Origin: Escherichia phage vB_EcoM_I14.1
Direction: 5' to 3' (one strand)
Length of the DNA: 64,000 nucleotides
Sequence record: PP892526.1
Shown piece after piece: positions 1,687 to 26,077 of this stretch. A program made the translations under genes and the position numbers. The notes beneath the pieces are model-generated. The model was given only the letters and a program-made list of their open reading frames with translations. It did no database searches and was not told the DNA's origin. The number at the start of each line of letters is the position of its first letter. The first letter of the stretch is position 1.

Positions 1687-1701
1687 TAGAGGTAAATTGG
1701 A

Positions 1702-2148
1702 ATGGCTATGTATCAGCAATATTCCCCTAAAGACGTTGTGTGTAGCTGGAATGGTATTGCCATTGAAGGCTTTGCCCCAGACTCATTCTTACGTCTACAG
1801 AGAACATCACCACTTGTGACACCAGTTGTAGGTGCAGGTGGTCAAGTTGCTCTGACAAGAAATGCAGACAAGACAGGTACTATTGAGATTGAGCTAATGC
1901 AGACTTCTCTCTCTAATCAGATGCTTTCTGCAATTCAAGCTAAACAAGACAATATGGAACTTGAAGAAGATATCTCTTCTAACTTCGTAATCTACGACCC
2001 ATCAGGCTCTGTTCTGGCAACTGGTATTAATGCTTGGTTGCAGGAACTACCACAGATTGAACTTGGTCGTGACCAGAACTCTAAAACTTGGATTTTTGGT
2101 TGTGAGAAGCTAGACTACACTTCTACAATTCCAGCGTCAAGTGTTTAA
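1702..2148 (+). CDS. tail tube protein (by synteny)
   Basis: 148-aa ORF between sheath and chaperone genes, followed by a hairpin plus T-run. Confidence 0.5.
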   Translation: MAMYQQYSPKDVVCSWNGIAIEGFAPDSFLRLQRTSPLVTPVVGAGGQVALTRNADKTGTIEIELMQTSLSNQMLSAIQAKQDNMELEEDISSNFVIYDPSGSVLATGINAWLQELPQIELGRDQNSKTWIFGCEKLDYTSTIPASSV

Positions 2149-2159
2149 TAAATCCTATA

Positions 2160-2193
2160 AGGGGGAGACTTTAAAAGGTCTTCCCCTTTTTTG
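2160..2193 (+). terminator. intrinsic terminator candidate after tube gene
   Basis: Imperfect GC-rich hairpin gggggagac...gtcttcccc followed by TTTTTT. Confidence 0.5.
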
Positions 2194-2221
2194 TTTCTTT
2201 TAAAAGTATTAAGGAATCACA

Positions 2222-2620
2222 ATGAAAACAGAATCTAGAGTAATTAATGGTAAGAAAGTAAACATCATTCTGCTTGGGGCAAGAGATGGTATTAAGATGT
2301 CTATGAAGTTGGGTAAAATTGTTGTTCCAACATTTGCACAGATGCTGTCAAGCCTGACTGATAAAGATAAGAAAGAAGCTCCGATGGTTCCGTTTAAAGA
2401 ACTTGTTGAAGCTTGTTTTGACAGAATTGAAGAAATTAACCTTGAAGAAATGGCTACCCTGTTATTTCAAGGGGCAACTGTTGATGACTTCCCACTTAAT
2501 ATTGATACATACTTCCAAGCAAACTATGGTGAATTTATTGATTACTTAGCATTTGCGCTGGAGGCAAACTTCGGAAGTTTTTTCGAAGCAAGCATTTTCA
2601 AAAGCCTAACTTCTCAGTAA
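2222..2620 (+). CDS. tail assembly chaperone (gpG/gpE-like)
   Basis: Position between tube and tape-measure genes; canonical slippery heptamer T_TTT_TTC at 2578-2584 near its 3' end. Confidence 0.55.
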   Translation: MKTESRVINGKKVNIILLGARDGIKMSMKLGKIVVPTFAQMLSSLTDKDKKEAPMVPFKELVEACFDRIEEINLEEMATLLFQGATVDDFPLNIDTYFQANYGEFIDYLAFALEANFGSFFEASIFKSLTSQ

Positions 2621-2622
2621 AC

Positions 2623-2861
2623 ATGGGTAATACTCTACAGACACCACTGACTGATGCTGCTGTAGAGGCAACCTATGAAGAAGCAGACGAGATGAAATTT
2701 GTGCTTGCTATTTATGGTATGGAAGGGTGTAAAGAAACACTTGACCAACTCTTTGCTATGACATTCTCTGATTTATTATCATTGAGACAATTTCTTGAGA
2801 TTCAGAGGTCGTATAAAGAGGAAATTGCTTACAACGAACTTAGAAGAGCAGGAAAAATGTA

Positions 2862-2862
<1 letters not shown>
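2623..2862 (+). CDS. tail assembly chaperone frameshift extension (gpGT/E'-like)
   Basis: Lies in the -1 frame relative to 2222..2620; that frame is open from the slippery site (2581) through 2862. Confidence 0.45.
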
Positions 2863-8246
<5,384 letters not shown>

Positions 8247-10877: not shown

Positions 10878-12053
10878 ATGGCAGTAGGTGAAATTCAAAT
10901 TAGTGCCTTGCCACAAGCGGCCTTACCAGTTGATTTAAGTGATATCTTCCATCTCAAGCAAGGTGTTGAGGATAAAAGATGTACGCTTGAACAGTTGTTA
11001 GCACCTCACGCATCTCTGAGGAATAACCCTCATGGTGTAACTAAATCACAAGTTGGTCTTGATAATGTTATTAACTCTCTTCAATTAGTTGCAGCTAATA
11101 ACTTGTCAGATATTGTAAGTGTTGCTGAGGCAAGAGCAAATCTACAAATTATGTCGTCAGAGGAAGTGAATAACTTAATTCAGCAACATATTGACGACAA
11201 AAGTAACCCACACAATACAACGAAAGCACAGGTTGGTTTAAGTAATGTTCAGAACTGGACAACATCTAATCTGTACAATGAAGATGCTGATAAGTATGCT
11301 ACCGCGAAAGCAGTTAATAATTTATATAAAGCTATCCAAGCGTCATATCCAGTAGGGACTATTCATCTATCTGTTAACTCTGCTAACCCATCCACTTACT
11401 TGCTTTGTGGAGGTACTTGGGAGTTAGTTTCTAAAGGTAGAGCATTAGTTGGTTATGATACAGATTCTAGACCTGTTGGTTCAACGTTTGGTTCTCAGAC
11501 TGTAGCATTAACAAATAATAATTTACCAGCACATACTCACTCTATCTATCTAACAGGTGGTGGTCATACACACTCTGCAAGTGTATCTATCTCTAGTTTT
11601 GATTATGGTTCAAAAAGTACATCAACTTTTGATTACGGTACAAAAACGACTAATAGTGCTGGTGCTCACACTCACACGTTTAGTGGCACAACAAGTAATG
11701 CTGGTAACCACAACCATAGAGTCCCTATGAGGGGTAATGATAGGGGTGGCACAAACGCTATTACTGCATCTGCTGATGCTGGTGTTGGTAATGCTATGTA
11801 TACTGATTTAGCTGGTGCTCACACCCATAGCTTCTCAGGTACAACTGCATCATCTGGTGCTCATAGCCATACTGTCGCAATTGGTGCTCACAGCCACACT
11901 GTTAATATTGGTTCGCACAGTCATACAGGCACTGTTACTGTTTCTAGCTCTGAGCATACACACTCAGGGACATCTGGTTCTGTTGGTGGTGGTCAAGCTT
12001 TCAGTGTTGAGCAGCCATCTTTTGTAGTGTATGTGTGGCAGAGAACAGCTTAA
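10878..12053 (+). CDS. tail fibre protein with His-rich HxH repeat tip
   Basis: C-terminus carries repeated GAHTHSFSG / GAHSHTV / GSHSHTG motifs (HxH repeats as in T4-type fibre tips) and ends in WQRTA. Confidence 0.6.
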   Translation: MAVGEIQISALPQAALPVDLSDIFHLKQGVEDKRCTLEQLLAPHASLRNNPHGVTKSQVGLDNVINSLQLVAANNLSDIVSVAEARANLQIMSSEEVNNLIQQHIDDKSNPHNTTKAQVGLSNVQNWTTSNLYNEDADKYATAKAVNNLYKAIQASYPVGTIHLSVNSANPSTYLLCGGTWELVSKGRALVGYDTDSRPVGSTFGSQTVALTNNNLPAHTHSIYLTGGGHTHSASVSISSFDYGSKSTSTFDYGTKTTNSAGAHTHTFSGTTSNAGNHNHRVPMRGNDRGGTNAITASADAGVGNAMYTDLAGAHTHSFSGTTASSGAHSHTVAIGAHSHTVNIGSHSHTGTVTVSSSEHTHSGTSGSVGGGQAFSVEQPSFVVYVWQRTA

Positions 12054-12062
12054 TTTCTTTAC

Positions 12063-12086
12063 AGGGGCTATAAAGCCCCTTTTAAG
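12063..12086 (+). terminator. hairpin between the two fibre genes (attenuator or weak terminator)
   Basis: aggggct-ataa-agcccct followed by ttt. Confidence 0.35.
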
Positions 12087-12099
12087 AGGAAAATTCATA

Positions 12100-14637
12100 A
12101 TGGCAGATTACAAATTGAGTCAGTTAAACTCAATCGACACAATTCGTTCAGAAGACCTATTGCACATCAGAGTTAAGAAAAGACCTAAAATGTTGGGTGA
12201 CGAAGACCGTAGAATGACCTATCAAGACTTCTTAGCATCTTTTAAACTTGAAAGATTTGTTCAGATTGCTGGTAGTACTATGACAGGTGACTTAGGGATT
12301 GTTAAGTTACTTTATGGTGGTAAGGCAGTATTTGACCCAACAGGCTCTTCTGAGGTTACTATTGGGGATATTTTAAAGACTTTTAAAATTAATTCAAATG
12401 GGCTTAAACTCACTATTGCAGATGCCACAAGGTCGGCAACTGTTTATCATACTTTGAACAAACCAAGCCCTAATGAACTTGGCATGAGAACTAATGAAGA
12501 GAATGATGCAAGATATGCAAGGCTTGCTGTTACAAACACATTCTCTGGAACTCAGAACATTCAAGGTGATGCTAACTTACTTCGCCTTAGAAACCGAAAT
12601 GCAAACAATGCACAATACATTGAAGGTGTAAACCTAGATGGTTCAGCTAGATGGTGGGTTGGTATTGGTAGCAATGGTTCTGACGAAGTAAAACTGTACA
12701 ATAACAAATACAACTCAGTCTTGACTGTTGCAAGTAATATCTCTGTTAATAAATCTTTAGCAATCACTGGACAAGTTCAACCTTCAGATTTCTCTAACTT
12801 AGATGCTAGATACTTCACTCAGACAGTTGCTAATCAGAGATTTGCACAGTTAGCTGGCAATAATACTTTTACAGGTGCTAACACTTTCACTAGCCTTGTT
12901 GTTAAGAAGAATGCTAATGCTATTACTTTGCAGAATACTGATACAAGTACAGCACTTTACATTCTCGGTAAGAAGTCTGATGGAACAAATAAATGGTATG
13001 TTGGTACAGATTCTGACGAGACACGTCTGAACATTTATAACTACCTTACAGGTTCACAGGTTTCACTAGGTACTACTATTGGTATCAATAAGACTGTGCA
13101 AATCACTGGACAAGTTCAACCTTCGGATTGGGCTAATATCGATTCTAGATATATTCCGGCAGCAACATTAAGTACGATTGCAAGAACTAATGCTGCTAAT
13201 ACATTCTCTGCACAACAGGTTATCAACGCTGATGGTGAAGCTCTTGCGTTAAAAGCAAAAACTGCAACGTCATTATTTATTAGAGGTAAGGATGTTGATG
13301 GAACCAGCAAGTGGTATGTTGGTAATGGTGATGCCAGTGATATCTTAAACCTGTATAACTACAAGACAGGTAAAGGGCTTAACATTGGTTCAGTATTTGA
13401 AATGAATGCAACTTTAGCAATCACTGGACAAGTTCAACCTTCTGATTGGGCTAATATTGATGCAAGATACTTTACGCAAAGTGCTAGTGATGGTAGATAC
13501 CTGAGAGTCAGAAGTACTGGCTTCAATAATGGAAACGTTGAAAAGTGGGCTAAAATTGCTACTGTCGTTATGCCGCAATCCGCATCTACTGCGGTGATTG
13601 AAGTGTTTGGTGGGTCTGGTTTTAATGTTAACGCACCACACCAAGCAGGTAAGTGTGAGATTATTTTACGAACATCAAACAATAACCCAAAGGGTTTAAA
13701 TGTTGTAGCTTGGAGAACCGCAGAGAATACCATTGTCACAGATATTGGTTATGTTAACACATCTGGCGACACTTATGATATTTACTGTAGGGTCGGTACG
13801 TACCAAAATGGTACAACATCAAGAGTTCAATCTTCTAGCAATGCAAGTGTGCAGCTATTTGAAGTCCCACAAACGTTTGATGATGCCCCACAAGGTATTG
13901 TGAAGGGTACAATTGCAAAATACTACACAAGTTTGCAAAAGCCAACCCCTTCAGATATCGGTGCATATACTAAAGCTGAAACTGACCAGAAAATTGCAGA
14001 AGCAATCAGTGACTCTACAGACCTGAATAAAATCTATCCAGTCGGTATTGTGACGTGGTTTAACAGTAATGTTAACCCTAATACAGCACTTCCTGGTCTA
14101 ACTTGGACGTACCTGAACAATGGTGTTGGCAGAACTATTAGAATTGCAGCAGCAAATGGCTCAGATGTTGCTACAACTGGTGGTTCAGACTCTGTAACGT
14201 TATCTGTTGGTAACTTACCTTCACACACGCATAGTTTCTCTGCTACCACTTCATCATTTGATTATGGTACTAAGACTTCTAGCACAACTGGTAACCATAA
14301 CCACAACAGGGGGACTATGGAGATTACTGGTACAGTAGGTTACTTCAGAAGTGATTCTAGCAGCTTCTACACAGCAAGTGGTGCATTCACACTTGGTAGT
14401 TCAACTGCTTCTAAAGGTTTTACTGGTTCTAACTTCACTTATGGTATCCCTGCTAACTTCAATGCGTCAAGAACTTGGTCTGGTGTAACGAATACAACAG
14501 GTAACCACAGCCACACTGTTGGTATTGGTGCTCACAGCCACACAGTTAGCGGTAACACAGGTGGTACTGGTTCTGGTTCAGCATTTAGTGTTACTAACCA
14601 GTTCTACAAGTTAATGGCTTGGGTAAGAACTGCTTAA
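12100..14637 (+). CDS. long tail fibre protein (three internal tandem domains, HxH repeat tip)
   Basis: Start taken at ATG 12100 behind RBS aagagga (ORF track begins at 12031); three ~110-aa repeats each ending ITGQVQPSD(W/F)(A/S)N(I/L)D(A/S)RY; C-terminal GNHSHTVGIGAHSHTV and WVRTA. Confidence 0.65.
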   Translation: MADYKLSQLNSIDTIRSEDLLHIRVKKRPKMLGDEDRRMTYQDFLASFKLERFVQIAGSTMTGDLGIVKLLYGGKAVFDPTGSSEVTIGDILKTFKINSNGLKLTIADATRSATVYHTLNKPSPNELGMRTNEENDARYARLAVTNTFSGTQNIQGDANLLRLRNRNANNAQYIEGVNLDGSARWWVGIGSNGSDEVKLYNNKYNSVLTVASNISVNKSLAITGQVQPSDFSNLDARYFTQTVANQRFAQLAGNNTFTGANTFTSLVVKKNANAITLQNTDTSTALYILGKKSDGTNKWYVGTDSDETRLNIYNYLTGSQVSLGTTIGINKTVQITGQVQPSDWANIDSRYIPAATLSTIARTNAANTFSAQQVINADGEALALKAKTATSLFIRGKDVDGTSKWYVGNGDASDILNLYNYKTGKGLNIGSVFEMNATLAITGQVQPSDWANIDARYFTQSASDGRYLRVRSTGFNNGNVEKWAKIATVVMPQSASTAVIEVFGGSGFNVNAPHQAGKCEIILRTSNNNPKGLNVVAWRTAENTIVTDIGYVNTSGDTYDIYCRVGTYQNGTTSRVQSSSNASVQLFEVPQTFDDAPQGIVKGTIAKYYTSLQKPTPSDIGAYTKAETDQKIAEAISDSTDLNKIYPVGIVTWFNSNVNPNTALPGLTWTYLNNGVGRTIRIAAANGSDVATTGGSDSVTLSVGNLPSHTHSFSATTSSFDYGTKTSSTTGNHNHNRGTMEITGTVGYFRSDSSSFYTASGAFTLGSSTASKGFTGSNFTYGIPANFNASRTWSGVTNTTGNHSHTVGIGAHSHTVSGNTGGTGSGSAFSVTNQFYKLMAWVRTA

Positions 14638-14716: not shown

Positions 14717-14914
14717 ATGCCTACAATCCTAGCAATTCTTCTAAAAAATCTAGGTAGCTTCTTCTGGAAACTCATTTTATCCCTTCTAAGTGAATACATG
14801 ATTGAGAAAGTGTTCTTTAGGCTTGCAAGATACCTTGCGAGTAAAACAGACACACCTATTGATGATGAGTTCGTAGATAACTTAGAAAAAGCTTTTAAGG
14901 GGGAAAATAAATGA
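14717..14914 (+). CDS. small membrane protein (holin-like candidate)
   Basis: 65 aa with hydrophobic N-terminal segment; own sigma70-like promoter upstream. Confidence 0.3.
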   Translation: MPTILAILLKNLGSFFWKLILSLLSEYMIEKVFFRLARYLASKTDTPIDDEFVDNLEKAFKGENK

Positions 14915-15282
14915 AGTGGCTAGAGGAAGCTTTTAAAAATAATATTGGTGCAATTGTAGTTGGTATTTTTAGTGTTATTGGGATGTATACCACCATGCAA
15001 GTTTCAAGTGGTAAACAAGAAGTGTCTGTCACAACAAAGTTACAGCAGCTAGATAACTATTCCAAAAGTAATTATTCAGCTATTCGTGATTTACAGTCTG
15101 ACATGAGATTGATTCAGCTAGGGATGGAGAACCAGAAAGTTCAGTTAGAGAATGTTAAGGGTGAGAATGCAAAACTTACCAAAACTCTTGATAAGTTCTC
15201 TGATAGTGTGAACAATCTGGCTCAGTCAGTATCAGCCTTGCAAGCTATTACTGAAAAGAACACAAAGAATACTGAAAAGTAA
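14911..15282 (+). CDS. membrane-anchored predicted coiled-coil protein
   Basis: N-terminal hydrophobic helix (IGAIVVGIFSVIGMY) then heptad-like sequence; followed by terminator. Confidence 0.3.
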   Translation: MKWLEEAFKNNIGAIVVGIFSVIGMYTTMQVSSGKQEVSVTTKLQQLDNYSKSNYSAIRDLQSDMRLIQLGMENQKVQLENVKGENAKLTKTLDKFSDSVNNLAQSVSALQAITEKNTKNTEK

Positions 15283-15287
15283 AGTTT

Positions 15288-15317
15288 AAGGCTCCTTTTT
15301 ACGGGAGCCTTTTTTGT
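15288..15317 (+). terminator. intrinsic terminator between convergent gene clusters
   Basis: ggctcc-tttttac-gggagcc followed by TTTTTT. Confidence 0.65.
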
Positions 15318-15318
15318 T

Positions 15319-16218
15319 TTATTTACCTACTGACAAAGGTGCTTCAATCTTTCCTGCATGTTGGTAGTTGTTAATTCCACCGATAAAGTCACTTGCAGTG
15401 AGATGTTTTAGGTCACTTAAAGTATTAAGTTGTAAACCAATCTCAAAAGTAGGTGCATGGAACTCTTCATTGTTCAGTAGTTCATAAACCTGTTTCATGT
15501 GGTTCTGATAAATCTGGGTATCTCCAAAGACACCTATCAAGTACCGTGGAGTGTATCCAGTCATCTTACAAAGAACTTCCAGAATAAAGCCATAAGATGC
15601 AATATTAAACGGAAGTCCTAAAAAGGTGTCTACAGAACGCTGATACCATTGTAAGTCAACTTCACCCTCGTTAGTGATATAAATCTGAAACAGAACATGA
15701 CAAGGTGCTAAAGCCATTGAGTTTGCTGCAATATCTGCTGCATTCCAAGCATTAACAAGCATGTAACGGTCTGTGATATCACCCTTCATCTTTGTTACTA
15801 AGGTCTCTAACTGGTCTACAACACAACCATTATGACCTTCAAAGTTTCTCCACTGAACCCCGTAGATTCTTCCACCTGCATCTTCTAACCAATCTTGTTC
15901 AGAAGAGTAATTAGAGCTTAACCAGCGTTTAAAATCATCTGACCAGATTGTCCAACGTTCTCCATCATTTTCACCCCAAGTACGGTAACGGAGTTCACCC
16001 AACTTATTCTCACCATTCAGGAACCATAAAGCTTCCCCAATAACTTGCCGTGTGAACACCTGTTTAGATGTTAAGAGCGGGAAACCAGTTCGCATATCAA
16101 AACGAAACTGAGGTGGAGCAAAAGCAGAGATAACATCTCCAGTTCGTGTGGTACGCAGTTCACCAACGGATAAAACATGGTTCAGGATATTTTTGTAACT
16201 TGAATCTGCTTGTGACAT
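15319..16218 (-). CDS. thyA: thymidylate synthase (ThyA family)
   Basis: Motifs TTRTGD, FPLLTSK, IYGVQWR, catalytic APCHVLFQ, QRSVDTFLGLPFNIASY, GDTQIYQNH. Confidence 0.85.
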   Translation of the reverse strand: MSQADSSYKNILNHVLSVGELRTTRTGDVISAFAPPQFRFDMRTGFPLLTSKQVFTRQVIGEALWFLNGENKLGELRYRTWGENDGERWTIWSDDFKRWLSSNYSSEQDWLEDAGGRIYGVQWRNFEGHNGCVVDQLETLVTKMKGDITDRYMLVNAWNAADIAANSMALAPCHVLFQIYITNEGEVDLQWYQRSVDTFLGLPFNIASYGFILEVLCKMTGYTPRYLIGVFGDTQIYQNHMKQVYELLNNEEFHAPTFEIGLQLNTLSDLKHLTASDFIGGINNYQHAGKIEAPLSVGK

Positions 16219-16219
16219 A

Positions 16220-16765
16220 TCAAAGGTGTCCTTTTACTTGTGGTGTATAGATATCAAAAGTTGCTTTTCCATCTGCTGATGGTCTTGACTGAATCTTAGC
16301 AAAAATTTTACGGTCATGCAACTTGTCAAAGAAGTTCTCAAAAGGTAGATACACAGTTGCCTCTTCAGTCACTTCATGGAAAACTGTATGAAACACTACA
16401 TCAGCATACGGTAAAGCACTGACAAGGATACCTGCACCACCAATTACGAAAACATCTTCTTCAATATTACTGTCAAGATACTTTAAAAATGCTCCAAAAG
16501 AGTCTTGATGAGATTTAGCAAACATAACGTCATCTTTACTAAAATCTATACCGTAATAAGGCACAGAGTTTGTTAAGATAAGGTTTTCACGTTCAGGTAA
16601 AGGATTACTTCCCAGAGTCTTGAAAGTCTCGTTACCCATTACTACTAAGTTGTCTTTAGTGAGTCTCTTAAACTCTTGCATATCCTCTTTATGTCGAGGC
16701 CACGGCATACCAGTTGGAGTACCAAACTCACCATTTCCACCACTTGCAAAGATTAATTTAATCAT
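16220..16765 (-). CDS. frd: dihydrofolate reductase
   Basis: DHFR signatures: GMPWPRHKEDMQEF, VVMGNETFKTLG, VFVIGGAGI; co-located with thyA. Confidence 0.8.
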   Translation of the reverse strand: MIKLIFASGGNGEFGTPTGMPWPRHKEDMQEFKRLTKDNLVVMGNETFKTLGSNPLPERENLILTNSVPYYGIDFSKDDVMFAKSHQDSFGAFLKYLDSNIEEDVFVIGGAGILVSALPYADVVFHTVFHEVTEEATVYLPFENFFDKLHDRKIFAKIQSRPSADGKATFDIYTPQVKGHL

Positions 16766-17022
16766 TTTGTAAATCCTTTCTTAATGAACCAGTTGATAAC
16801 AGTCTTCACAGCTTTATTGCTATGGTAGATTAAGTGCGGTGTAGGTTGGTATGAACCATAAGCCCAGAAAGCAATAATTTCACTACACCCTGTACATCTT
16901 GTACTCTCTTCAGCAATATGACCGTTGACTATTTCACTTACCTCGCCTTGTAAGTCTGTACATCCACAATGTGGACAACGAATAGGTGCTCCGTCAGACT
17001 CATAGCAGTGTTCAATTTTCAT
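16762..17022 (-). CDS. zinc-ribbon protein
   Basis: CPHCGC ... CTGC cysteine pairs. Confidence 0.35.
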   Translation of the reverse strand: MKIEHCYESDGAPIRCPHCGCTDLQGEVSEIVNGHIAEESTRCTGCSEIIAFWAYGSYQPTPHLIYHSNKAVKTVINWFIKKGFTK

Positions 17023-17538
17023 TTATTTAACCTCAAAAACTGGCTCAAGAACCAATATAAAGTCTACACAGTCATCTTCTTCATCCAGAATACCATCAAA
17101 GTTCTTAGGAACGAAGTCGAAGAGGCTCATAACAAAGCAGTCAGAAGTAACTCTAATAGTGCCTCCCATATTCTCTACAGTCAACACTGTACGGCTTTCT
17201 TTTACCTCTCTCAGAAGATTACTCACAAAGTCATCTAAGAAGTACTTCATCAGTGACTTAAAGCCTTTAGGGTAATCTGTACCAGAGTATGTTTCAATCT
17301 GAGGTACAAGCTTAACATTTATGCTAGTCTTTGTTAAGAATGTGCTAGAGAACATACTATCAGGTAACTTACAAACAGTCTTTCCAGTACCTTCATGCTC
17401 AATCTCAACAAAACCAGCTTCGTCGCCACATGTAACTATTTTAAAAGATGCTTCATTCTCATACTGTGAAGCCATAAACTTTTTAAGCATTTCCTTAAGG
17501 AAATCTGCATGAGCATCTTGTAAGTAGATATCAATCAT
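17023..17538 (-). CDS. hypothetical protein
   Basis: 171-aa ORF in leftward operon. Confidence 0.35.
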   Translation of the reverse strand: MIDIYLQDAHADFLKEMLKKFMASQYENEASFKIVTCGDEAGFVEIEHEGTGKTVCKLPDSMFSSTFLTKTSINVKLVPQIETYSGTDYPKGFKSLMKYFLDDFVSNLLREVKESRTVLTVENMGGTIRVTSDCFVMSLFDFVPKNFDGILDEEDDCVDFILVLEPVFEVK

Positions 17539-17551
17539 AGTTAATCACCTA

Positions 17552-17911
17552 TTATGGGAACAGACACTTGATGTCATCGTTTTTGAAAACGAAACTTGTG
17601 TAATTGTGACCATCAACATCCAGCCAAACAGCCTGAACATCTACACCATCAAGATTGTGGTAAAGCTCTTTGATGAAGTGGTCTTTCACAATCTGGCTGC
17701 TAGTTGTTTCCAGCTTAATATTTGAGATTGCTGAACCTACAGCCATATAACCCATGACACGTTTCTTCTCAGTATGCTTAATCTTACCATCTTTGTAAGC
17801 CATAATGAGATTGGAAAGAATCTTCACACCATAATACTTTTCAAGGTGAGTAGGTACACCATAAAAGCCTAATGCGAAGTTTTCAGAGTGGATAATGTTT
17901 TCACGTTTCAT
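17552..17911 (-). CDS. hypothetical protein
   Basis: 119-aa ORF in leftward operon. Confidence 0.35.
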   Translation of the reverse strand: MKRENIIHSENFALGFYGVPTHLEKYYGVKILSNLIMAYKDGKIKHTEKKRVMGYMAVGSAISNIKLETTSSQIVKDHFIKELYHNLDGVDVQAVWLDVDGHNYTSFVFKNDDIKCLFP

Positions 17912-17912
17912 A

Positions 17913-18212
17913 TTAATCTGCCAACCTTAAATTAAAATTAACACCAAATTTTTCACATACTTCCAACATAAACTTAAGAGAAACATTACCAGTGAGATTG
18001 ATTATGTTGGATACACGAGACTGAGAGATACCACAAATTTTAGCAACTTGCTCTTGAGAAAGGCCTCTGGATTTAATCTCTCTCTTAAAACGATGTGCAA
18101 CGAAGTCTCTCATTTCGTCTACATCCATTGGACAAATATAACTCTCCATTTCAGCCTCTCTGTCAGCCTCCCAATCATCTTGTGGAGCATAAGGGTCAAA
18201 AACCTCATTCAT
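17913..18212 (-). CDS. helix-turn-helix DNA-binding protein (Cro/C1-type)
   Basis: LSQEQVAKICGISQSRVSNIIN resembles XRE-family HTH; start taken at internal Met (ORF track 18242). Confidence 0.4.
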   Translation of the reverse strand: MNEVFDPYAPQDDWEADREAEMESYICPMDVDEMRDFVAHRFKREIKSRGLSQEQVAKICGISQSRVSNIINLTGNVSLKFMLEVCEKFGVNFNLRLAD

Positions 18213-18417
18213 CTTTCTTCTTCCGTTTGCGTGAAGTGTCAATCAATGAATCTATGTTTGTAGCTCTGACCTTTTCACGTTCATCGTTAAGATAATCATC
18301 AAGAGCCTTTTCAATCTGTGAATCATCTTGACAGATAACTGTAAAGACTGTAAAGCCGTCTATATCATCAATTATCTTACCATAACCGCTTCTGGGATGT
18401 AACTTTTTCAGAGCCAT
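18205..18417 (-). CDS. hypothetical protein
   Basis: 70-aa ORF. Confidence 0.25.
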   Translation of the reverse strand: MALKKLHPRSGYGKIIDDIDGFTVFTVICQDDSQIEKALDDYLNDEREKVRATNIDSLIDTSRKRKKKDE

Positions 18418-18418
18418 A

Positions 18419-18802
18419 TCAAATACCTGTGCAGCTTCTGTTTTCTAAGAAATACTCAACACCATACATAGCTTTTTGCATCAAATCTTCTTTAAACTGA
18501 ATACGATGATTAAGCATAGCCTGTACATCAATATCATCATGGTGCTTCTCTTTAATATTTGCAGATTGCAGGAAATACTCTGCAAGAACACGATACTGAT
18601 AGTCAGTTACCTTGTCAGTCATCTCTGTTAAAGATTCTTCAGAGATTGGTTTAAGTAACTCACCATTAGCCAAAGCAACACCTTTAACAATCTGGCAAGT
18701 ATCTTCTGGAACACCTGATAAGTCCACATTTGGAAGTTCTGTTGCATTGACTGGTAAATTCATTGCCATAACCATTGCAGCAGCTAATAAAATCTTTTTC
18801 AT
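18419..18802 (-). CDS. secreted/periplasmic protein
   Basis: N-terminal signal peptide MKKILLAAAMVMAMNLPVNA; first gene of leftward operon. Confidence 0.4.
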   Translation of the reverse strand: MKKILLAAAMVMAMNLPVNATELPNVDLSGVPEDTCQIVKGVALANGELLKPISEESLTEMTDKVTDYQYRVLAEYFLQSANIKEKHHDDIDVQAMLNHRIQFKEDLMQKAMYGVEYFLENRSCTGI

Positions 18803-18846
18803 AATGACCTCAAAGTTATATTAAATTTTGTATTACATTGAGTATA

Positions 18847-18892
18847 AAAATAAGCTATAACACCTGACTTGTCAACAGATTTTATAGCTTAT
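18847..18892 (-). promoter_or_regulatory. leftward promoter embedded in an 11-bp perfect inverted repeat (operator candidate)
   Basis: Minus strand TTGACA-N17-TATTTT; arms ataagctataa (18850-18860) and ttatagcttat (18882-18892) flank the -35. Confidence 0.4.
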
Positions 18893-18910
18893 TTGGCAGA
18901 TTTTTTATAA

Positions 18911-19450
18911 GGCTACTGCCATCCTTCCATACCTTACCACACCAAACCACACCATACCGAGCCACACCCTACCAGACCCTACCAAACCCGACCGAGCATC
19001 ACTTAAAAATCCTCTTAGAAGACTCTTAAGTGATGTAATCGAATTTTAATGTAGCTCCGATTAACTACCCATACCTCACCTTACTTAACCGTACCGCACA
19101 GAACCACACCAAACCTAACACCACTTCTCATCACCTTATTAAAAACCCTGTTTAAAGACCTTTTAAAAAGATGAGTCTCATTTTAATGTAGATGAGACTA
19201 ACTACCCGCACCGAACCTCACCTGACCTGACAGCACCCGACCTCACCGCGCCATACCATACCATACTTCACTTAAAAATCCTCTTAGAAGGCTCTTAAGT
19301 GATGTAATCGAATTTTTATGTAGCTCCGATTAACTACCCGCACTTTACCAAACCTCACCCTACCCTACCAGACCTTACCTAACCGCGCCGTACCTCATTA
19401 AAAGACCCTCTTAAAGACCTTTTAAAAAGGAGCCTCCGAAGAGGCTACCT
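18911..19450. repeat. tandem array of four ~110-160-bp composite repeats (G-poor CA-rich tract + A/T-rich palindrome + hairpin with conserved loop)
   Basis: Unit ends at 19070, 19207, 19339; units A and C share a ~70-bp near-identical block; unit B keeps loop ttttaatgtag and tail aactaccc with a different stem. Confidence 0.6.
19420..19448 (-). terminator. intrinsic terminator for leftward two-gene cassette
   Basis: Minus strand hairpin gcctc-ttcg-gaggc followed by tccttttt, just past the stop of 19458..19898. Confidence 0.5.
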
Positions 19451-19457
19451 AGTCAAC

Positions 19458-19898
19458 TTAGAAAGGTTTTCTACGTTGCTTATTAATGTTAGCTTTCATA
19501 GCAGCTAAATGGTTTTGCTGTTCAATCAGTCGTGAGCGTTCTTGATGGCTAAGTGCCATAGTGTTCACATTCTCAATCGCTTGAGTGGCTTGCTTTAAAG
19601 CTCGACCAATCTTGCCAGACATTTTACGTTTTGCAATAGTTGCTTGATGCTTAGGTTCAACCACACGATAACCAACACCCATTGAAGCAACCAGATAAAT
19701 CTTCTCTTCTTTAAGAAGCTTCTCAATAAACTTCTCAAGTCGGTTTAGACGTGTAAGCGCATAAGCCTTCATTTCATCTTCGTACTTAACAATGTCACCT
19801 TGATAAGTTGGCTTCACAATACCTAAGAATGTGTCCATCTCAGAATGTGATACAGTGTCACCGTAACTAAACTTTGCTGCTAATGCTTTTGTATTCAT
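19458..19898 (-). CDS. hypothetical protein (repeat-flanked cassette)
   Basis: 146-aa ORF followed by leftward intrinsic terminator. Confidence 0.4.
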   Translation of the reverse strand: MNTKALAAKFSYGDTVSHSEMDTFLGIVKPTYQGDIVKYEDEMKAYALTRLNRLEKFIEKLLKEEKIYLVASMGVGYRVVEPKHQATIAKRKMSGKIGRALKQATQAIENVNTMALSHQERSRLIEQQNHLAAMKANINKQRRKPF

Positions 19899-19900
19899 AA

Positions 19901-20506
<606 letters not shown>

Positions 20507-20574
20507 TTAGTTGATTGTTAAGTTGTTTGTAAAGAACCCTCAACAGAAGACTCTTTAGAAACTTGGTAGATTTT

Positions 20575-20700
20575 TAACGTGGCTACTACCATCCACCCAG
20601 ACTTTACCATACCTCACCAGACCATACCTCACCTGGCCGCGCCTTGCCTTGCCAAACATCACTTAAAAACCCTTTTAAAAGACTCTTAAGTGATGCTGGT
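20575..20700. repeat. fifth copy of the composite repeat (CA-rich tract + catcacttaaaaa...cttaagtgatg palindrome)
   Basis: Shares ggctactaccatcc, the CA-rich tract and the 10-bp-arm palindrome with units at 18911-19450. Confidence 0.55.
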
Positions 20701-20725
20701 GAGTACCCGTTGGTTTATGCTGCTC

Positions 20726-20753
20726 AGTATACTCACCAAATTTTCTATGTCAA
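20726..20753 (-). promoter_or_regulatory. leftward sigma70-like promoter for cassette 20503->19458
   Basis: Minus strand TTGACA-N16-TATACT. Confidence 0.45.
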
Positions 20754-20760
20754 CAACTTT

Positions 20761-21897
20761 TTATTCGTAGTCTCGAATAACGAGGCCAACAGGAAACTGT
20801 AAAGAACCCTTACGAGTCATCTTCTGGAACTGAACCGTTAAAGGCTTCCCAATAAACTCTTCAGGATGTTCAGCAAGATACTGTTTCTTCTCATGAGTAG
20901 TCTTCCATGAGACATCTACAAAGACGTTAGGAAGAGTCTCTACAACGAACTTGCCATGACCACGCTTATCAGTCTTTACACCAGTCACTTTAAATTCTTC
21001 AGTGTGCATCTTCTTGTGCTTAATCAAGAAGTACGAACGGTGACAACACTCATAGAAGGAGTCTTCAGAGATTGAACGGTACATTGCACCTTCAAACTTA
21101 GCTTCAACCCACTTATCATGAGCTTCATCAAACTCTTCCCAAGAATTTACACGACGAGACTTAACAGGAACAACTTTACAGCCATCTCTGAAGTCATTCA
21201 ATGGTGAAGTCTCAATGATATCTCTACGCTCAGGCCACGTCTTAGTGCTGTCACAGATGTCGTACCAGTAAAACTGGAGTAGATGTCGGTCTGGATTGTC
21301 AGCATTCTTAATCATAGACACAATATCTTCTAAGTCCCAACCATGAGCATAAATCTCACCATCAAAGTCTTCGACTTGTGGATGCAATTTAAGCAACAAA
21401 AGCAAATCTGGGATTAGTTCTGCTGGGACGTTGTAAACAGCATTCTCACGAGAATAAGCCGTGAAGCTAACTGAATCAGCATCTCTTGAAATTCTACAAC
21501 GTACACCATCAAGTTTTGGTTGAGCATCAGCAGGGAATATCAAATACTTTGCATGACTCACCTTTGCAGCATCATGAGCAAGCTGTACACCTACCTTCTC
21601 AGTATTCTGTGCAGACTCTTTTGTGTAAGCATAGCCTTTGCGGTCAATTTGCTTTTTATACTTAGCAGCAACTTCAAAGAGAGCTTGCTGTTCAGCGTTA
21701 CGCTCATTCTTTTTACCGATGTTTTTCGGTTCTGCTGTGTACTCTTCAAACATCATCTTGCCATTTTCTTTACCGTAGGTTGTAATAACTTTGTCGCCTA
21801 CAGCAACGCATGACCATACGTTGAAAGAGCCATCTTTATTTTGTTTGTACAGTATTGTCATTTTATTCCTCTGAGTGATACCAAGTGTTGCAAGCAT
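20761..21897 (-). CDS. ATP-dependent DNA ligase
   Basis: Nucleotidyltransferase motif I KLDGVR, motif III DGEIY, motif IV EGAMYR, motif V LIKHK. Confidence 0.8.
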   Translation of the reverse strand: MLATLGITQRNKMTILYKQNKDGSFNVWSCVAVGDKVITTYGKENGKMMFEEYTAEPKNIGKKNERNAEQQALFEVAAKYKKQIDRKGYAYTKESAQNTEKVGVQLAHDAAKVSHAKYLIFPADAQPKLDGVRCRISRDADSVSFTAYSRENAVYNVPAELIPDLLLLLKLHPQVEDFDGEIYAHGWDLEDIVSMIKNADNPDRHLLQFYWYDICDSTKTWPERRDIIETSPLNDFRDGCKVVPVKSRRVNSWEEFDEAHDKWVEAKFEGAMYRSISEDSFYECCHRSYFLIKHKKMHTEEFKVTGVKTDKRGHGKFVVETLPNVFVDVSWKTTHEKKQYLAEHPEEFIGKPLTVQFQKMTRKGSLQFPVGLVIRDYE

Positions 21898-22054
21898 TAC
21901 ATGCGTAAAGCTCTAAGTCATTTTTATCTGGTTTATGAAAACAGTTTGCTCCGCAGTGGCAACGAAACGGCTTTCCACCAACTGTCAGGATGAAAGATTG
22001 AACCTTTCCATCAGGAGTTCGTACAGCATTTTTATGCTTATCTTCTTTGTTCAT
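21863..22054 (-). CDS. zinc-finger protein
   Basis: CHC ... CNAC cysteine/histidine cluster. Confidence 0.3.
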   Translation of the reverse strand: MNKEDKHKNAVRTPDGKVQSFILTVGGKPFRCHCGANCFHKPDKNDLELYACNACNTWYHSEE

Positions 22055-22356
22055 TTTCTCTTACCACCAATCTCTACGTCAATAACCTGAACATCACCAG
22101 CAACATCAAACTTGTGAATGATGCTTTCCACAGTGTAAGTCCAACCATCGATGCGAACCAATTCACCTTCTCGTGGGACTATTGGGTTACGTTGAGCTAC
22201 GGTTGTAGTGGAGTGAACAACATCATAACAATAGATATAGTTTACTAGGACTTCCATCGTGAAAACCTCACTCAATAACCGTAGTATGTGATTGACCATT
22301 TTTGCCATAGCTATAAGATGTTGTTGTTTGAGAGTTTGGACATCTGACAACAACAA
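22051..22356 (-). CDS. hypothetical protein (start uncertain)
   Basis: ORF overlaps the next gene; true start probably an internal Met. Confidence 0.25.
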   Translation of the reverse strand: MLLSDVQTLKQQHLIAMAKMVNHILRLLSEVFTMEVLVNYIYCYDVVHSTTTVAQRNPIVPREGELVRIDGWTYTVESIIHKFDVAGDVQVIDVEIGGKRK

Positions 22357-22504
22357 TATCTCTGCTTATGGCATCGCCATGTAACTTGTAGACTTTGCAA
22401 TCTTGCATCTCTGGTGGGAGGCTATAAGAAGCATTTTTATCCTCGTAAGAGGGATTGCAGCCAGCTAGAAAAATAACACCAAGCACAATTACTGCTTTCC
22501 ACAT
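22268..22504 (-). CDS. lipoprotein
   Basis: Signal peptide with lipobox FLAGC. Confidence 0.35.
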   Translation of the reverse strand: MWKAVIVLGVIFLAGCNPSYEDKNASYSLPPEMQDCKVYKLHGDAISRDIVVVRCPNSQTTTSYSYGKNGQSHTTVIE

Positions 22505-22691
22505 AGCACTTCTCCTATTTACTGTTCACGATGTTCTACTTCTCTATATGTACGCCGGTAGTATATGATGAGCTGTGCTAAGTCGCTACTTTTAACATCT
22601 GAGCGTAACAGTTGCCAATCAAAACCTTTACCGACCCTTCCATATAAACTAAAGAATTTTACTTTGCGTTTCATTTTGGTGTTCCCAATAC

Positions 22692-22919
22692 TCAGAGGTC
22701 AATGCTAATACGTTCACCCTTAAGGACTCCTGTACGGTCTCTTGCAATCTTACCGTCAACAATAAGGATATGCGCAGACTTTAAAGATTCACTATTAAAA
22801 CCTTTTACGAACTTACTAGGCATCACCACAATAAGCATCTCTTGAATCAACTCTGGAGTATAGCAATTGTCGTGAAGTTGCTGAATAACATCTGCAAGTG
22901 TCATTTTTGGTGTCTCCAA
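22692..22919 (-). CDS. small protein, paralogue A (possible S4-like RNA-binding fold)
   Basis: ~45% identical to 23107..23316; shared C-terminal GKIA(R/K)D(R/K)TGxLKGER(I/V)xI. Confidence 0.35.
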   Translation of the reverse strand: METPKMTLADVIQQLHDNCYTPELIQEMLIVVMPSKFVKGFNSESLKSAHILIVDGKIARDRTGVLKGERISIDL

Positions 22920-23110
22920 TACTCAATGTCAATAAGTTCTTGTGCAATGCTTTTCAGATTACCTTTCAAGAAAACCTTCTCAGAACCTGAAAGAGATGAA
23001 TTGTCAATTAACCTGTTCATTCTCTCAAACAACTTCTGTTTACGATTCTTGATAGTTTCCTTTGAAGCACCTTTCATCATCGCTGCATGGGTTCTTCCAC
23101 GGTGGCTCAT
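22901..23110 (-). CDS. small basic protein
   Basis: 69-aa ORF between the two paralogues. Confidence 0.3.
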   Translation of the reverse strand: MSHRGRTHAAMMKGASKETIKNRKQKLFERMNRLIDNSSLSGSEKVFLKGNLKSIAQELIDIEYWRHQK

Positions 23111-23316
23111 AGTAAACTCTCAATATTTACACGCTCACCTTTTAAGTAGCCTGTCTTATCTTTTGCGATTTTACCTCCAGCAATAAAGATATCTACTCTA
23201 CGTAGAACTTCAGGGTTTACCCTAGAACTACTGCAAATGACAATAAGCATACTTTCAATCTCTTTTTGAGAATACCCAGCACATTGCAACTGTACTTCAA
23301 TCTCTGAAAGTGTCAT
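23107..23316 (-). CDS. small protein, paralogue B
   Basis: Paralogue of 22692..22919. Confidence 0.35.
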   Translation of the reverse strand: MTLSEIEVQLQCAGYSQKEIESMLIVICSSSRVNPEVLRRVDIFIAGGKIAKDKTGYLKGERVNIESLL

Positions 23317-23377
23317 GTGACCTCCTATACAAGATACAGTATAAGGTACTCTTCCATGAGCACCTTGTCAATATTAA

Positions 23378-26077
23378 TTAGTGTACTTCAAGCCAGCTTT
23401 TACCAACCTTACCAGTACCTGTTACAAGTGTTTCTTTCTTAAGACCTAAGTTCTTAGAAGCTTGCCCATAATACCAGTCAGTAACTGCTTTCACTTCTGC
23501 CGTCATACTTTCTGGACATTCCCAACTCGTTTCATCGTGATATGCGCAGAGCAAGCGAGCACCAATAGCTGGTTGACGACCATTCAACTTCATCAAACCT
23601 TCGTCAATCATACGACGACAAGCAAGGTTAATTGCCTCATTTTGAATCTGAGCCTCTGAACCCATCAAAAGATAGTTCAACAGTTTGTGTGGAGATTTAC
23701 ACCACAACCAAGCTCCAGCAACCTTTACAAAACCCCCTTTAGAGATTGCAGCAGTCTTACCAAACACCTCTTCAAGTGCTTTTTTAGTCGCTTTGTAGTC
23801 AGCTTCCAAGTCATCAAGCAGCTTCTTAATTTTAGGCAAACGAATAAAGTAAGTCTGTTTAGTCAGTGCACCTTCCTGAGTAGTTGCAGCTTTAATCGTC
23901 TTAGCAAACTTCTCATCACCTGCACCGAACAGCAGTGCATAGATACCATTCTTAGCTTTCTTACGACCCTTACTAATCTCATGAAGAAGATTCTCATCCT
24001 GAGTAGCTCGGCAAGTCAAGATATCCTGCTCATCATTCAAGCTAAAGTAAATACTGTTCAGTGTGTGTGCATCAGTCCCTGAATAGACAACGTAAAGGTC
24101 ATTCTCAGAGTCATAGCGTAGGTACTTATCAATCTCTGGATTGAGGTACTCATCAAAGTGTTTGCAGTAATAGCGTCCATCTTCTTGACGAATAAACTCA
24201 ATCTCTTCTTTACCTTGCGTTACCGCTTTGGTGAAGTCTTTGTCACCCATAAAGTTACAAAGAAGAACTAGCTGGGCTGAGTTCATGTCTACAGAGACAA
24301 CGTTAGTACCTTCTTCACAAATCCACACTGCCCTCATTGGTTCCCCATAGACAGCAGCACCAGACGGTACGTTTACAATACCATACTGTGTCATACGCCC
24401 AGTTGAAGTACCAAATACCATTGCACCAGCACTAAGGCGACCATCAGGACGAATCTGGTTCAGCCAACCTTTTTCATCATCCTTTGAGTTCTCAATAGTT
24501 CTGCGTCGGTGCATCAAAGTATAGTACTTAGCAATCTTCTGTCCAAGCTCACCTTCAATCGTATCATAAGATGATTCAGTAAGCTTTGGTGAAGTCCTAA
24601 TCAGACAAGGTTCAAGTAAATCTGTGTACTTCTTCACAGACCAGTTATGCTCAATGTACTGGACACCTTCATGTTCAACATAACTCAACCCACACCGTTC
24701 AACCATCTCCTGCCACTTAGGATGCTTTGTAATCATCTTTTTGTTGTCTTTGAAACGACAAACTTTGACAGGGCGACCGTCTGAATCTTTCTTGTAGTTC
24801 CAGTCATCTGGAATCCAACCAACTGATTTCAAATAGTCTTTAACAACTGCTACCTGAGTCATACGAGAAACTTCGAACTCAATTGGTGTATATGGTGCAT
24901 CAATCAAACCTGTGTAGCGACTTGACTCAAGCTCAAAGTGGTTAACAACATGGCTGTTATAGTACTTCACAGTTTTAACTGTTTTTACTGGCTTCCAATC
25001 TTTGCATTTCTTACCAATCTTTGCATTCAACTCATTGCAAATTGCACGAGCATCCTTCATTGCTACAAAACCTTCCTTGTACTCTTCACCAGTTACAGAG
25101 TTGGTTGGTGTATAGCAATTCCGCTTTTCAATGTTAAAAATCTTTGTAGTTGGCTTACCAAATGGCTTGATTTCATATGTCTGCATCTCACCGTTACGTA
25201 CCTGCTGACGATACTTTGTCTTAGGGTACTTGGTAATTCTCTTCAATCCATCTGCATGCCCGAATGCTTCAACATACTCATTCCAAGCTTTTGCAAACTC
25301 TTCTCCAGTGACTTTACCTTTGGTCTTAATAGTTGGTGGAAGGTGTGGTTCAACTTCTGAAGCAAGCTCATTAGTCAACTTGTCAAGTTCCTTTACATGA
25401 AACTCCATAAGTTCTTTATCAGCTTTCCAACCATTGATAGCTTGTTGACTCATCCAGAAAGATGTTTCTTTAGCTCGCATGTAGGTTTCATAAGTATCTA
25501 CGCCACACTTCTTCAGCTTGAGATATTCATTATCCAGTGCGCGTTTAGTTTTGGCGTTAATACGGATATCTTCTACAACACGAGTGAAGATTTCTGCATT
25601 CCACACACCCCAATGTTCAATCTCTGGTTTACGTACACCAACACGAGCACCCCATGCTGCCAAGCCATGAGCGCCTTTATAGCCTTTTGGAGTTGGTCTA
25701 TCCATCCACTGAACACGAGACTGGATAAGAGAATCCTGAAAGAAATTACTCCACGGCTTACACTTTGGATTATCAAAGTTCCACAAATCAGGTGCAATGT
25801 GATTGAAAACCCACCAGTCATATCCCAGACCATTATGGATGCAAAGTCGTTTTGCCTTTAACGCAAACTCAACACCTTCACGCAAGCCACCCTTAATGTA
25901 CTTGGTATACTTGTGACCGAGGATAGGTTCATCTGTAAAGACCCATACAGGCGGCTCTTCATCGTCAGATTTATAGTCTGCGAAAGCCATTACGTGCACT
26001 TTAGTGAACTCAAGGAGTAAACCATCAGTTTCTGTATCACCAACTAAATGTAAGTTTTTAAAATCTACGTTTTCCAT
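23378..26077 (-). CDS. DNA polymerase, family A, with 3'-5' exonuclease domain
   Basis: Exo motif VGDTETDGL; Pol A motif B-like KKAKNGIYALLFGAG; motif C-like LLCAYHDETSWE; start at Met behind RBS gagggag (ORF track 26107). Confidence 0.85.
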   Translation of the reverse strand: MENVDFKNLHLVGDTETDGLLLEFTKVHVMAFADYKSDDEEPPVWVFTDEPILGHKYTKYIKGGLREGVEFALKAKRLCIHNGLGYDWWVFNHIAPDLWNFDNPKCKPWSNFFQDSLIQSRVQWMDRPTPKGYKGAHGLAAWGARVGVRKPEIEHWGVWNAEIFTRVVEDIRINAKTKRALDNEYLKLKKCGVDTYETYMRAKETSFWMSQQAINGWKADKELMEFHVKELDKLTNELASEVEPHLPPTIKTKGKVTGEEFAKAWNEYVEAFGHADGLKRITKYPKTKYRQQVRNGEMQTYEIKPFGKPTTKIFNIEKRNCYTPTNSVTGEEYKEGFVAMKDARAICNELNAKIGKKCKDWKPVKTVKTVKYYNSHVVNHFELESSRYTGLIDAPYTPIEFEVSRMTQVAVVKDYLKSVGWIPDDWNYKKDSDGRPVKVCRFKDNKKMITKHPKWQEMVERCGLSYVEHEGVQYIEHNWSVKKYTDLLEPCLIRTSPKLTESSYDTIEGELGQKIAKYYTLMHRRRTIENSKDDEKGWLNQIRPDGRLSAGAMVFGTSTGRMTQYGIVNVPSGAAVYGEPMRAVWICEEGTNVVSVDMNSAQLVLLCNFMGDKDFTKAVTQGKEEIEFIRQEDGRYYCKHFDEYLNPEIDKYLRYDSENDLYVVYSGTDAHTLNSIYFSLNDEQDILTCRATQDENLLHEISKGRKKAKNGIYALLFGAGDEKFAKTIKAATTQEGALTKQTYFIRLPKIKKLLDDLEADYKATKKALEEVFGKTAAISKGGFVKVAGAWLWCKSPHKLLNYLLMGSEAQIQNEAINLACRRMIDEGLMKLNGRQPAIGARLLCAYHDETSWECPESMTAEVKAVTDWYYGQASKNLGLKKETLVTGTGKVGKSWLEVH

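Follow-up and report, generated by a model that had tools for sequence, protein, structure and literature searches.

Two probable baseplate fibres of a Felixounavirus with T4 gp37-type tips and a mosaic long fibre

The subject of this analysis is a pair of adjacent genes for a short (STF) and a long (LTF) tail fibre at positions 10878-14637 of a 64,000-nt stretch of Escherichia phage vB_EcoM_I14.1 (PP892526.1), here called the window. The closest described systems are the fibre pairs of other Ounavirinae. In Bas63, as resolved by cryo-electron microscopy (cryo-EM) density with fitted AlphaFold trimers, both the STF (gp26) and the LTF (gp27) carry a gp37-like collar, needle and head with His-x-His (HxH) motifs; the wedge bears the STF and a gp9-like platform the LTF, and the LTF holds β-helix repeats like the T4 gp34 rod, parted by triple-helix-and-turn motifs (PMC12609058). 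Both tips and the repeats were reported to be hypervariable in the genus, and the motifs were counted against the seven of T4, where each HxH of the three chains coordinates one Fe ion on the needle axis (as recounted in PMC12609058). Cryo-EM of Sf14 in 2025 likewise showed a pair of fibres, 391 and 792 aa long (PMC11821841). Earlier, the Felix O1 genome paper of 2010 recognized both fibres as gp37-like at the C-terminus, with virion mass spectrometry covering 31% of gp77 and 9% of gp76 (PMC3185647), and in VpaE1 (2015) both fibres were found homologous to gp37 and the receptor was shown to be a carbohydrate of the lipopolysaccharide (LPS) core (PMC4690856).

The window pair shares with the Felixounavirus and Ounavirinae fibres its synteny, its gp37-like tips with HxH motifs, the LTF repeats on helix-turn linkers and the variability of the tips. 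The architecture of two fibres, gp37-like HxH tips and a repeated shaft is already known for the genus and brings no new biology; modestly new are the LTF start, a domain and breakpoint map, an LTF head shared with prophages, and the finding that Felix O1, unlike the window phage, has one and the same head on its two fibres. The window pair differs from Bas63 in motif number, with 9 (STF) and 4 (LTF) HxH against the 7 and 6 (+HHxH) given in PMC12609058, and in the shaft, where three repeats are recognized by sequence as opposed to five β-helix domains counted structurally in Bas63. The LTFs of the window phage and wV8 also have a larger, 67-aa head and a middle domain of ~150 aa, which is absent from Felix O1 and Ro111lw. 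Fibre tips decide which bacteria a phage infects, and Felix O1-like phages are used in diagnostics and biocontrol of Salmonella and E. coli O157.

The 3.76-kb fibre stretch shows 100% identity to PP886228.1, the record of Escherichia phage vB_EcoM_D4, whose isolation host was E. coli O157:H7; all comparisons below were made with this D4-type sequence, which is what is meant by the window phage. DNA identity is ~94% to wV8 and the O157 typing phages, and ~82%, over the first 3.4 kb, to the Salmonella Felix O1-like phages. The tail module runs in the order tape measure, hub, spike, wedge, baseplate J, baseplate protein, a 100-aa open reading frame (ORF), STF, LTF and two small ORFs, and the same order is found in wV8, FO1a, Ro111lw, nataliec, BPS15Q2, Sf14, Michonne and EcSzw-2; by sequence identity and gene order the pair is orthologous to the Felixounavirus fibre genes. 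The STF corresponds to Felix O1 gp76 (gp75 in the FO1a record numbering), wV8 gp82, Sf14 gp52 and Bas63 gp26, and the LTF to Felix O1 gp77 (gp76 in the FO1a record numbering), wV8 gp83, Sf14 gp53 and Bas63 gp27; the STF is 391 aa long in the window phage, wV8, Ro111lw and Sf14 alike. Judged by sequence, the locus very probably holds the genes for both baseplate fibres of a Felixounavirus of the vB_EcoM_D4 type, with tips of the T4 gp37 type. The concern, raised in an earlier note made from the window sequence alone, that one of the genes might be a non-expressed remnant can be set aside, since both are intact in 10/10 phage loci read and both fibres have been seen on Bas63 and Sf14 virions, and the products of both genes were detected in the virion proteome of Felix O1 (PMC12609058, PMC11821841, PMC3185647).

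Evidence for the nature of the tips comes from the HxH motifs and their correspondence to T4. The earlier note had pointed to arrays of these motifs in both C-termini and to their related ends, and this is borne out: the STF has nine HxH motifs (aa 219, 230, 264, 278, 315, 329, 338, 347 and 360), including GAHSHTV twice and GSHSHTG, and ends in WQRTA, and the LTF has four (aa 709, 733, 803 and 812, in the 845-aa numbering justified below), including GNHSHTV and GAHSHTV, and ends in WVRTA. Composition-preserving shuffles yield on average 1.4 motifs for the STF and 0.13 for the LTF, and none of 10,000 shuffles reaches either observed count, so that a chance origin of the motifs was rejected.

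The resemblance to T4-type tips that the earlier note had called reminiscent proves to be homology. The receptor-binding tip of T4 gp37 (2XGF) is the best solved-structure match for both fibres in a phmmer search of the PDB, the STF aligning from the collar through the full length of the needle (query 145-362 to chain 17-227, E 1.8e-26) and the LTF over the needle (query 703-824 to chain 101-218, E 3.8e-7). In a five-way alignment that includes T4 gp37 the HxH motifs lie in register: three of the seven in T4 pair with STF 230, 264 and 278 on the way out to the head and four with 315, 329, 338 and 347 on the way back, and the STF carries one motif beyond the T4 set at each end (219 and 360). 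The layout is thus four HxH, a 34-aa head and five HxH in the STF, two, a 67-aa head and two in the LTF, and three plus four in T4. The order of collar, HxH strand, head, HxH strand and C-terminal return is shared with T4 gp37, as are the FDYGTK and GxHxHxVxIGAHxH motifs and the form of the ends (..NYIVRLA in T4, ..VYVWQRTA in the STF and ..LMAWVRTA in the LTF). The fibres differ from T4 in their collar, which is of a gp10_C subtype where T4 has a PWPSD collar, in the number of HxH rungs (9 and 4 against 7) and in their heads, which are unrelated to that of T4; their tip is also borne by a fibre made of one protein that attaches straight to a simple baseplate, where T4 has a four-protein long fibre. 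By homology, both tips are very probably collar, needle and head structures of the T4 gp37 type, and nine metal sites would be predicted in the STF needle and four in the LTF needle, as compared to seven in T4.

It could be argued that the HxH arrays are simply low-complexity sequence rich in Gly, Ser, Thr and His without a metal-binding role. The region is compositionally biased, and the confidence of AlphaFold2 (AF2) monomer models is low there: built from multiple sequence alignments of 66 (STF) and 56 (LTF) homologues, they reach a mean predicted local distance difference test score (pLDDT) of 69 for the STF and 64 for the C-terminal 385 aa of the LTF, with needle and head poorly defined. 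Structure prediction had been called for in the earlier note; outside needle and head, pLDDT is 87-91 in the STF collar and 63-91 in the LTF middle domain. Against low complexity stand the shuffle counts, the residue-for-residue alignment of the motifs with those that coordinate Fe in the crystal structure 2XGF, and the conservation of the histidines, several pairs of which are invariant or nearly so among the same 66 and 56 homologues, spanning 34-96% identity. This explanation is hardly credible, and the arrays are best read as gp37-type needle strands.

Two observations weigh against the assignment. The collar domain expected before the needle is clearly present in the STF, where Pfam Gp10_C scores 67.6 bits (cut-off 27) and the structural neighbours of the model are gp10 and gp11, but is marginal in the LTF, which aligns with the STF collar (YPVG...NLPxHTHS) and yet scores only 24.6 bits, below the same cut-off. 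Secondly, dedicated assembly chaperones serve the fibres of T4 (gp38, gp57A) and lambda (Tfa), and T4 has gp38 directly downstream of its fibre gene, whereas no such gene follows the window LTF, and no chaperone of the gp38 or Tfa type was found among the genes adjoining the fibres, a check that covered the two downstream ORFs and their PHROG matches. Since no gp38- or Tfa-like gene adjoins them, the folding of these fibres may differ from that in T4 and lambda. The authors of the Sf14 study likewise report no homologues of Mu-type chaperones (PMC11821841). The collar itself is related to the C-terminal domain of T4 gp10 (PF21939; PDB 2FKK; related to gp11 and gp12), but in the Felix-type fibre it would lie under the needle as a collar in place of serving as a wedge connector.

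The relation between the two tips of the window phage is a separate matter, on which the earlier note had taken shared tips on different shafts as a sign of module exchange and of two receptor-binding proteins of related chemistry. A tip module recently exchanged or copied between the two fibres would fit the significant similarity of their C-terminal regions (31-32% identity over ~245-270 aa, E 2e-27 to 5e-30), the short DNA repeats over HxH motifs common to both genes, and the situation in FO1a and BPS15Q2, where the 31-aa heads of STF and LTF are all but the same (TVGGRYGGDSIGGKHRVQVSG..), the tips are 47-51% identical and a 271-nt stretch is 81.6% DNA-identical between the genes (FO1a 4084-7640). 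In the window phage, however, the tips reach no more than 32% identity, and no DNA match between the genes is longer than 43 nt (at 86%). The two collars are of distinct sequence subtypes, and the heads, one of 34 and one of 67 aa, are without similarity; wV8, Ro111lw and Sf14 of the genus Mooglevirus have kept this divergent pair as well. A recent exchange is thus highly unlikely. Because of the low identity of the tips and the shortness of the longest DNA match, the tips are, on sequence grounds, regarded as old paralogues of a common scaffold, and tip sharing within one phage holds for Felix O1 and not for the window phage.

As the heads are unrelated and the head is the receptor-contacting part in T4, the two window fibres probably bind different ligands. 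The proposal of related chemistry accordingly loses its footing, and the notion of module exchange fails between the two fibres of the window but stands among orthologous LTFs and prophage fibres.

Comparison of protein and DNA among relatives reveals the LTF to be a block mosaic. Relative to Ro111lw the core of repeat 1 (aa 147-215) and the middle domain (aa 461-613) are replaced, with ~96% DNA identity elsewhere; relative to wV8, repeat 3 is replaced and most of the gene is conserved; and relative to Felix O1 and BPS15Q2 the head is replaced, the Felix O1 gene retaining 89% DNA identity in the collar and 92% in the C-terminus. In Felix O1, repeats 2 and 3 are also represented by divergent alleles. 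The middle domain is present in the window phage, wV8 and BPS15Q2, and a shorter, unrelated block takes its place in Felix O1 and Ro111lw, so that identity to Ro111lw and FO1a falls to 7-47% there between flanks of ~96-100%.

In the breakpoint comparison, of a kind proposed in the earlier note, the head turns out to be bounded by HxH motifs: DNA similarity to Felix O1 and BPS15Q2 ends at 14292-14305 and returns at 14512, and both breakpoints coincide with such motifs, NHNH at aa 733 and NHSH at aa 803. The conserved HxH and FDYGTK sequences are plausible recombination sites. The mosaic pattern matches the 'His box' model that Tetart, Desplats and Krisch reportedly put forward for T-even fibre genes in 1998, as well as the classic evidence that fibre segments move horizontally, said to have been presented by Haggard-Ljungquist et al. 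in 1992.

The same head occurs outside this group of phages. Together with its flanking His boxes, the LTF head has 85-88% aa identity to the heads of the E. coli prophage tail fibres P0183 and P0155, and the cassette is present in 15 of 5,426 complete E. coli genomes at 76-78% nucleotide identity over 290 nt; the middle domain is ~50% identical to a domain of P0155. A contig search for P0155 gave none, and its genomic context was taken instead from the E. coli genome collection. In O104:H4 2009EL-2071 (1613-4986) the cassette lies in a lambdoid J-Lom-Stf-Tfa module, in an Stf of 930 aa (WP_000279201.1) in which the LTF-type head is flanked by a collar and a C-terminus that are both T4-like, with a Tfa chaperone gene following. 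The lambdoid Stf proteins (lambda Stf orf-314, O104:H4 Stf) resemble the LTF in head, His boxes and middle domain, but differ in their T4-type collar and C-terminus (NIAFNYIVRLA), in the Tfa gene that follows and in being accessory side fibres of siphoviruses. As collar and C-terminus of the prophage fibre are of T4 type, the sequences indicate that one head cassette is mounted on two different scaffolds or more. The needle of the STF, for its part, shares 57% identity with other prophage fibres. A head cassette lying between conserved His boxes, and interchangeable with prophage fibres, would be useful for host-range engineering.

A further proposal, which is tentative and to which we would give somewhat less than an even chance, is that Felix-like phages toggle between two modes of host recognition by moving one head cassette bounded by His boxes. 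In the Salmonella phages (Felix O1, BPS15Q2) the same 31-aa head on both fibres would mean one ligand bound with double avidity, whereas in the E. coli and Shigella phages (window phage, wV8, Ro111lw, Sf14) the 67-aa, prophage-shared LTF head would mean two ligands. If true, this would imply gene flow between virulent myoviruses and the resident prophages of their hosts. The toggle is not spelled out in PMC12609058, PMC11821841, PMC3185647 or PMC4690856; it would be an instance of long-known tail-fibre mosaicism.

A model can be drawn up from the phage identity, homology, motif statistics, repeats, mosaic blocks and breakpoints and prophage cassette established here, with the trimer, the six-stranded needle and the baseplate attachment of both fibres taken from the published structures of orthologues. 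Both fibres would be homotrimers with their N-termini on the baseplate, each chain running out along the needle to the head and back again, with a small collar domain beneath the needle. At each HxH level six histidines from the three chains would surround one metal ion (Fe2+ in T4). The shaft of the LTF would be the longer one, with three gp37_trimer (gp34-rod-like) repeats on QPSDxxNxDxRY linkers followed by the β-sandwich middle domain. Beyond this structural frame, we infer the metal occupancy, the receptor identities and the division of labour between the fibres: the heads would bind LPS core or other surface glycans, in keeping with the receptors of the group, the LTF most likely making the first, reversible contact and the STF the second. 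The common collar and needle scaffold would derive from an ancient duplication or from an ancestral module that both fibres share, and host range would evolve by homologous recombination at the His boxes around the head and at the QPSD linkers around the repeats, with cassettes swapped among related phages and with the side tail fibres of E. coli lambdoid prophages.

The role of the STF in this scheme may be questioned. It may not be an independent receptor-binding protein but a baseplate-proximal fibre acting mainly as an irreversible lock or trigger relay like T4 gp12 or gp10, with the LTF alone setting host range. Its collar is of the Gp10_C family, the Bas63 STF sits directly on the wedge with its tip packed against the sheath (PMC12609058), and its tip is 99.6-100% identical among the window phage, wV8, Ro111lw (O111 host) and MET-P1-301, although whole blocks set the LTF of wV8, and likewise that of Ro111lw, apart from the window LTF. 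The STF nevertheless has a complete gp37-type needle and head, and the head, its sole block divergent from Felix O1, is hypervariable when phages of E. coli and of Salmonella are compared (30-37% identity), as would be expected of a specificity determinant; published conservation mapping also displays both tips as variable (PMC12609058). On balance a mere lock or relay is rather unlikely, and the STF is preferably seen as the second of two receptor-binding fibres, its 34-aa head presumably forming the receptor-contacting tip.

The coordinates of the genes, domains and intergenic hairpin are collected in Table 1.

Table 1. Features of the STF-LTF locus in window coordinates
Feature	Position	Strand	Remarks
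STF gene	10878..12053	+	ORF, 391 aa; 100% identical to vB_EcoM_D4 CDS0059; phrog_2097 tail fiber, E 1e-138
STF collar	11304..11531	+	~aa 143-218; gp10_C / gp37-collar type
STF ascending needle strand	11532..11717	+	4 HxH (aa 219, 230, 264, 278), FDYG(S/T)K repeats
STF head insert	11718..11819	+	34 aa, RVPMRGNDRGG...TDLAGA; widest gap between HxH motifs
STF descending needle strand and C-terminal return	11820..12050	+	5 HxH (aa 315-360); end VYVWQRTA
Intergenic hairpin	12063..12083	+	AGGGGCU-AUAA-AGCCCCU then UUUU; within the likely spurious 5' extension of the 868-aa ORF
LTF gene	12100..14637	+	845 aa from likely true start; phrog_4277 tail fiber, 1340 bits, full length
LTF shaft repeats R1-R3	12490..13470	+	aa 131-238, 240-351, 353-457; Pfam PF20744 gp37_trimer, 3 stretches
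LTF middle domain	13480..13938	+	aa 461-613, ~150 aa; predicted all-beta sandwich, AF2 pLDDT 63-91
LTF collar region	13939..14223	+	aa 614-708; hardly varies among Felix-like LTFs (97-100% identity to wV8, Ro111lw, FO1a)
LTF ascending needle strand	14224..14304	+	HxH aa 709, 733; FDYGTK motif
LTF head cassette	14305..14505	+	67 aa, NRGTMEITGTVGYFRSD...NASRTWSGVTNTTGN; AF2 monomer pLDDT <50
LTF descending needle strand and C-terminal return	14506..14634	+	HxH aa 803, 812; end LMAWVRTA

The shaft of the LTF contains the three tandem repeats of ~110 aa that the earlier note had described. PF20744 (gp37_trimer) matches the protein with 209.7 bits in total (cut-off 21.7, E 4.8e-63), the matches covering positions 2-93 of the 95 in the model, and in this near-full, threefold tandem match the shaft is like the T4 gp34 rod; it differs in that relatives carry divergent alleles in place of single repeats and that the repeats are only 39-47% identical to one another, at ~108 aa each. 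Every repeat closes with ITGQVQPSD(W/F)(A/S)N(I/L)D(A/S)RY (DNA at 12763, 13102 and 13420), and the corresponding DNA repeats lie at 12740, 13079 and 13397, with spacings of 339 and 318 nt. A hidden Markov model (HMM) built from the repeats recovers exactly three domains, each with E ~1e-50, and a fourth or fifth shaft repeat was sought in the LTF with this HMM without any being found; the modules flanking the repeats (aa ~55-130 and 461-613) share with them only short PSP/PSD linker motifs.

In Foldseek the middle domain resembles one domain of WceF, an enzyme like a tailspike (6tgf, E 1.5e-7), and of the Acinetobacter phage tailspikes 6e1r and 5w5p. It could serve as a second glycan-binding site. 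The N-terminal part of the STF is without gp37_trimer or β-sandwich domains of the LTF shaft type; its N-terminal half holds the motif NPHxxTKxQVGLxNVxN twice, at aa 48-66 and 108-126 (11019-11075 and 11199-11255). Near the other end of the STF, W387 and R389 are invariant in the 66 homologues.

The earlier note had given the LTF a length of 868 aa, which is not upheld. That figure is the longest ORF only, read from 12031, and is also the GenBank annotation for vB_EcoM_D4; its frame starts within the STF gene, overlaps the STF stop and crosses the intergenic hairpin. An ATG at 12100 is preceded by the Shine-Dalgarno sequence AAGAGGA, and the equivalent start is annotated in wV8, FO1a, Ro111lw, nataliec and BPS15Q2, whose LTFs begin MADYKLS. 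On account of these two observations the numbering used here starts from 12100: this is most likely the true start, with a protein of 845 aa rather than 868, and the extension from 12031 to 12099 in the vB_EcoM_D4 record is likely a start-codon misannotation.

The stem-loop between the genes (12054-12089; inner stem 12063-12080) has a minimum free energy of -16.4 kcal/mol and a z-score of -3.4. A rho-independent terminator is annotated at the equivalent site in the wV8 record; a terminator scan gave no call at this hairpin, the T run being too short. The hairpin may act as a partial terminator and/or a translational attenuator that sets the STF:LTF ratio. In the minimum-energy fold the outer stem pairs UUUCUU (12054-12059) with AAGAGG of the LTF Shine-Dalgarno sequence.

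The two small ORFs 3' of the LTF lie at 14717-14914 (65 aa, phrog_402) and 14911-15282 (123 aa, phrog_4038). Both PHROGs are of unknown function, the 123-aa product is labelled a holin in several relatives, and neither resembles a fibre chaperone. A strong terminator hairpin at 15288-15311 ends the rightward structural operon. After the fibre module, on the opposite strand, come the genes for thymidylate synthase (td, 15319-16218) and dihydrofolate reductase (frd, 16220-16765), which open a leftward-transcribed block matched by a negative GC skew from ~15 kb to ~26 kb (window ~15300-26000).

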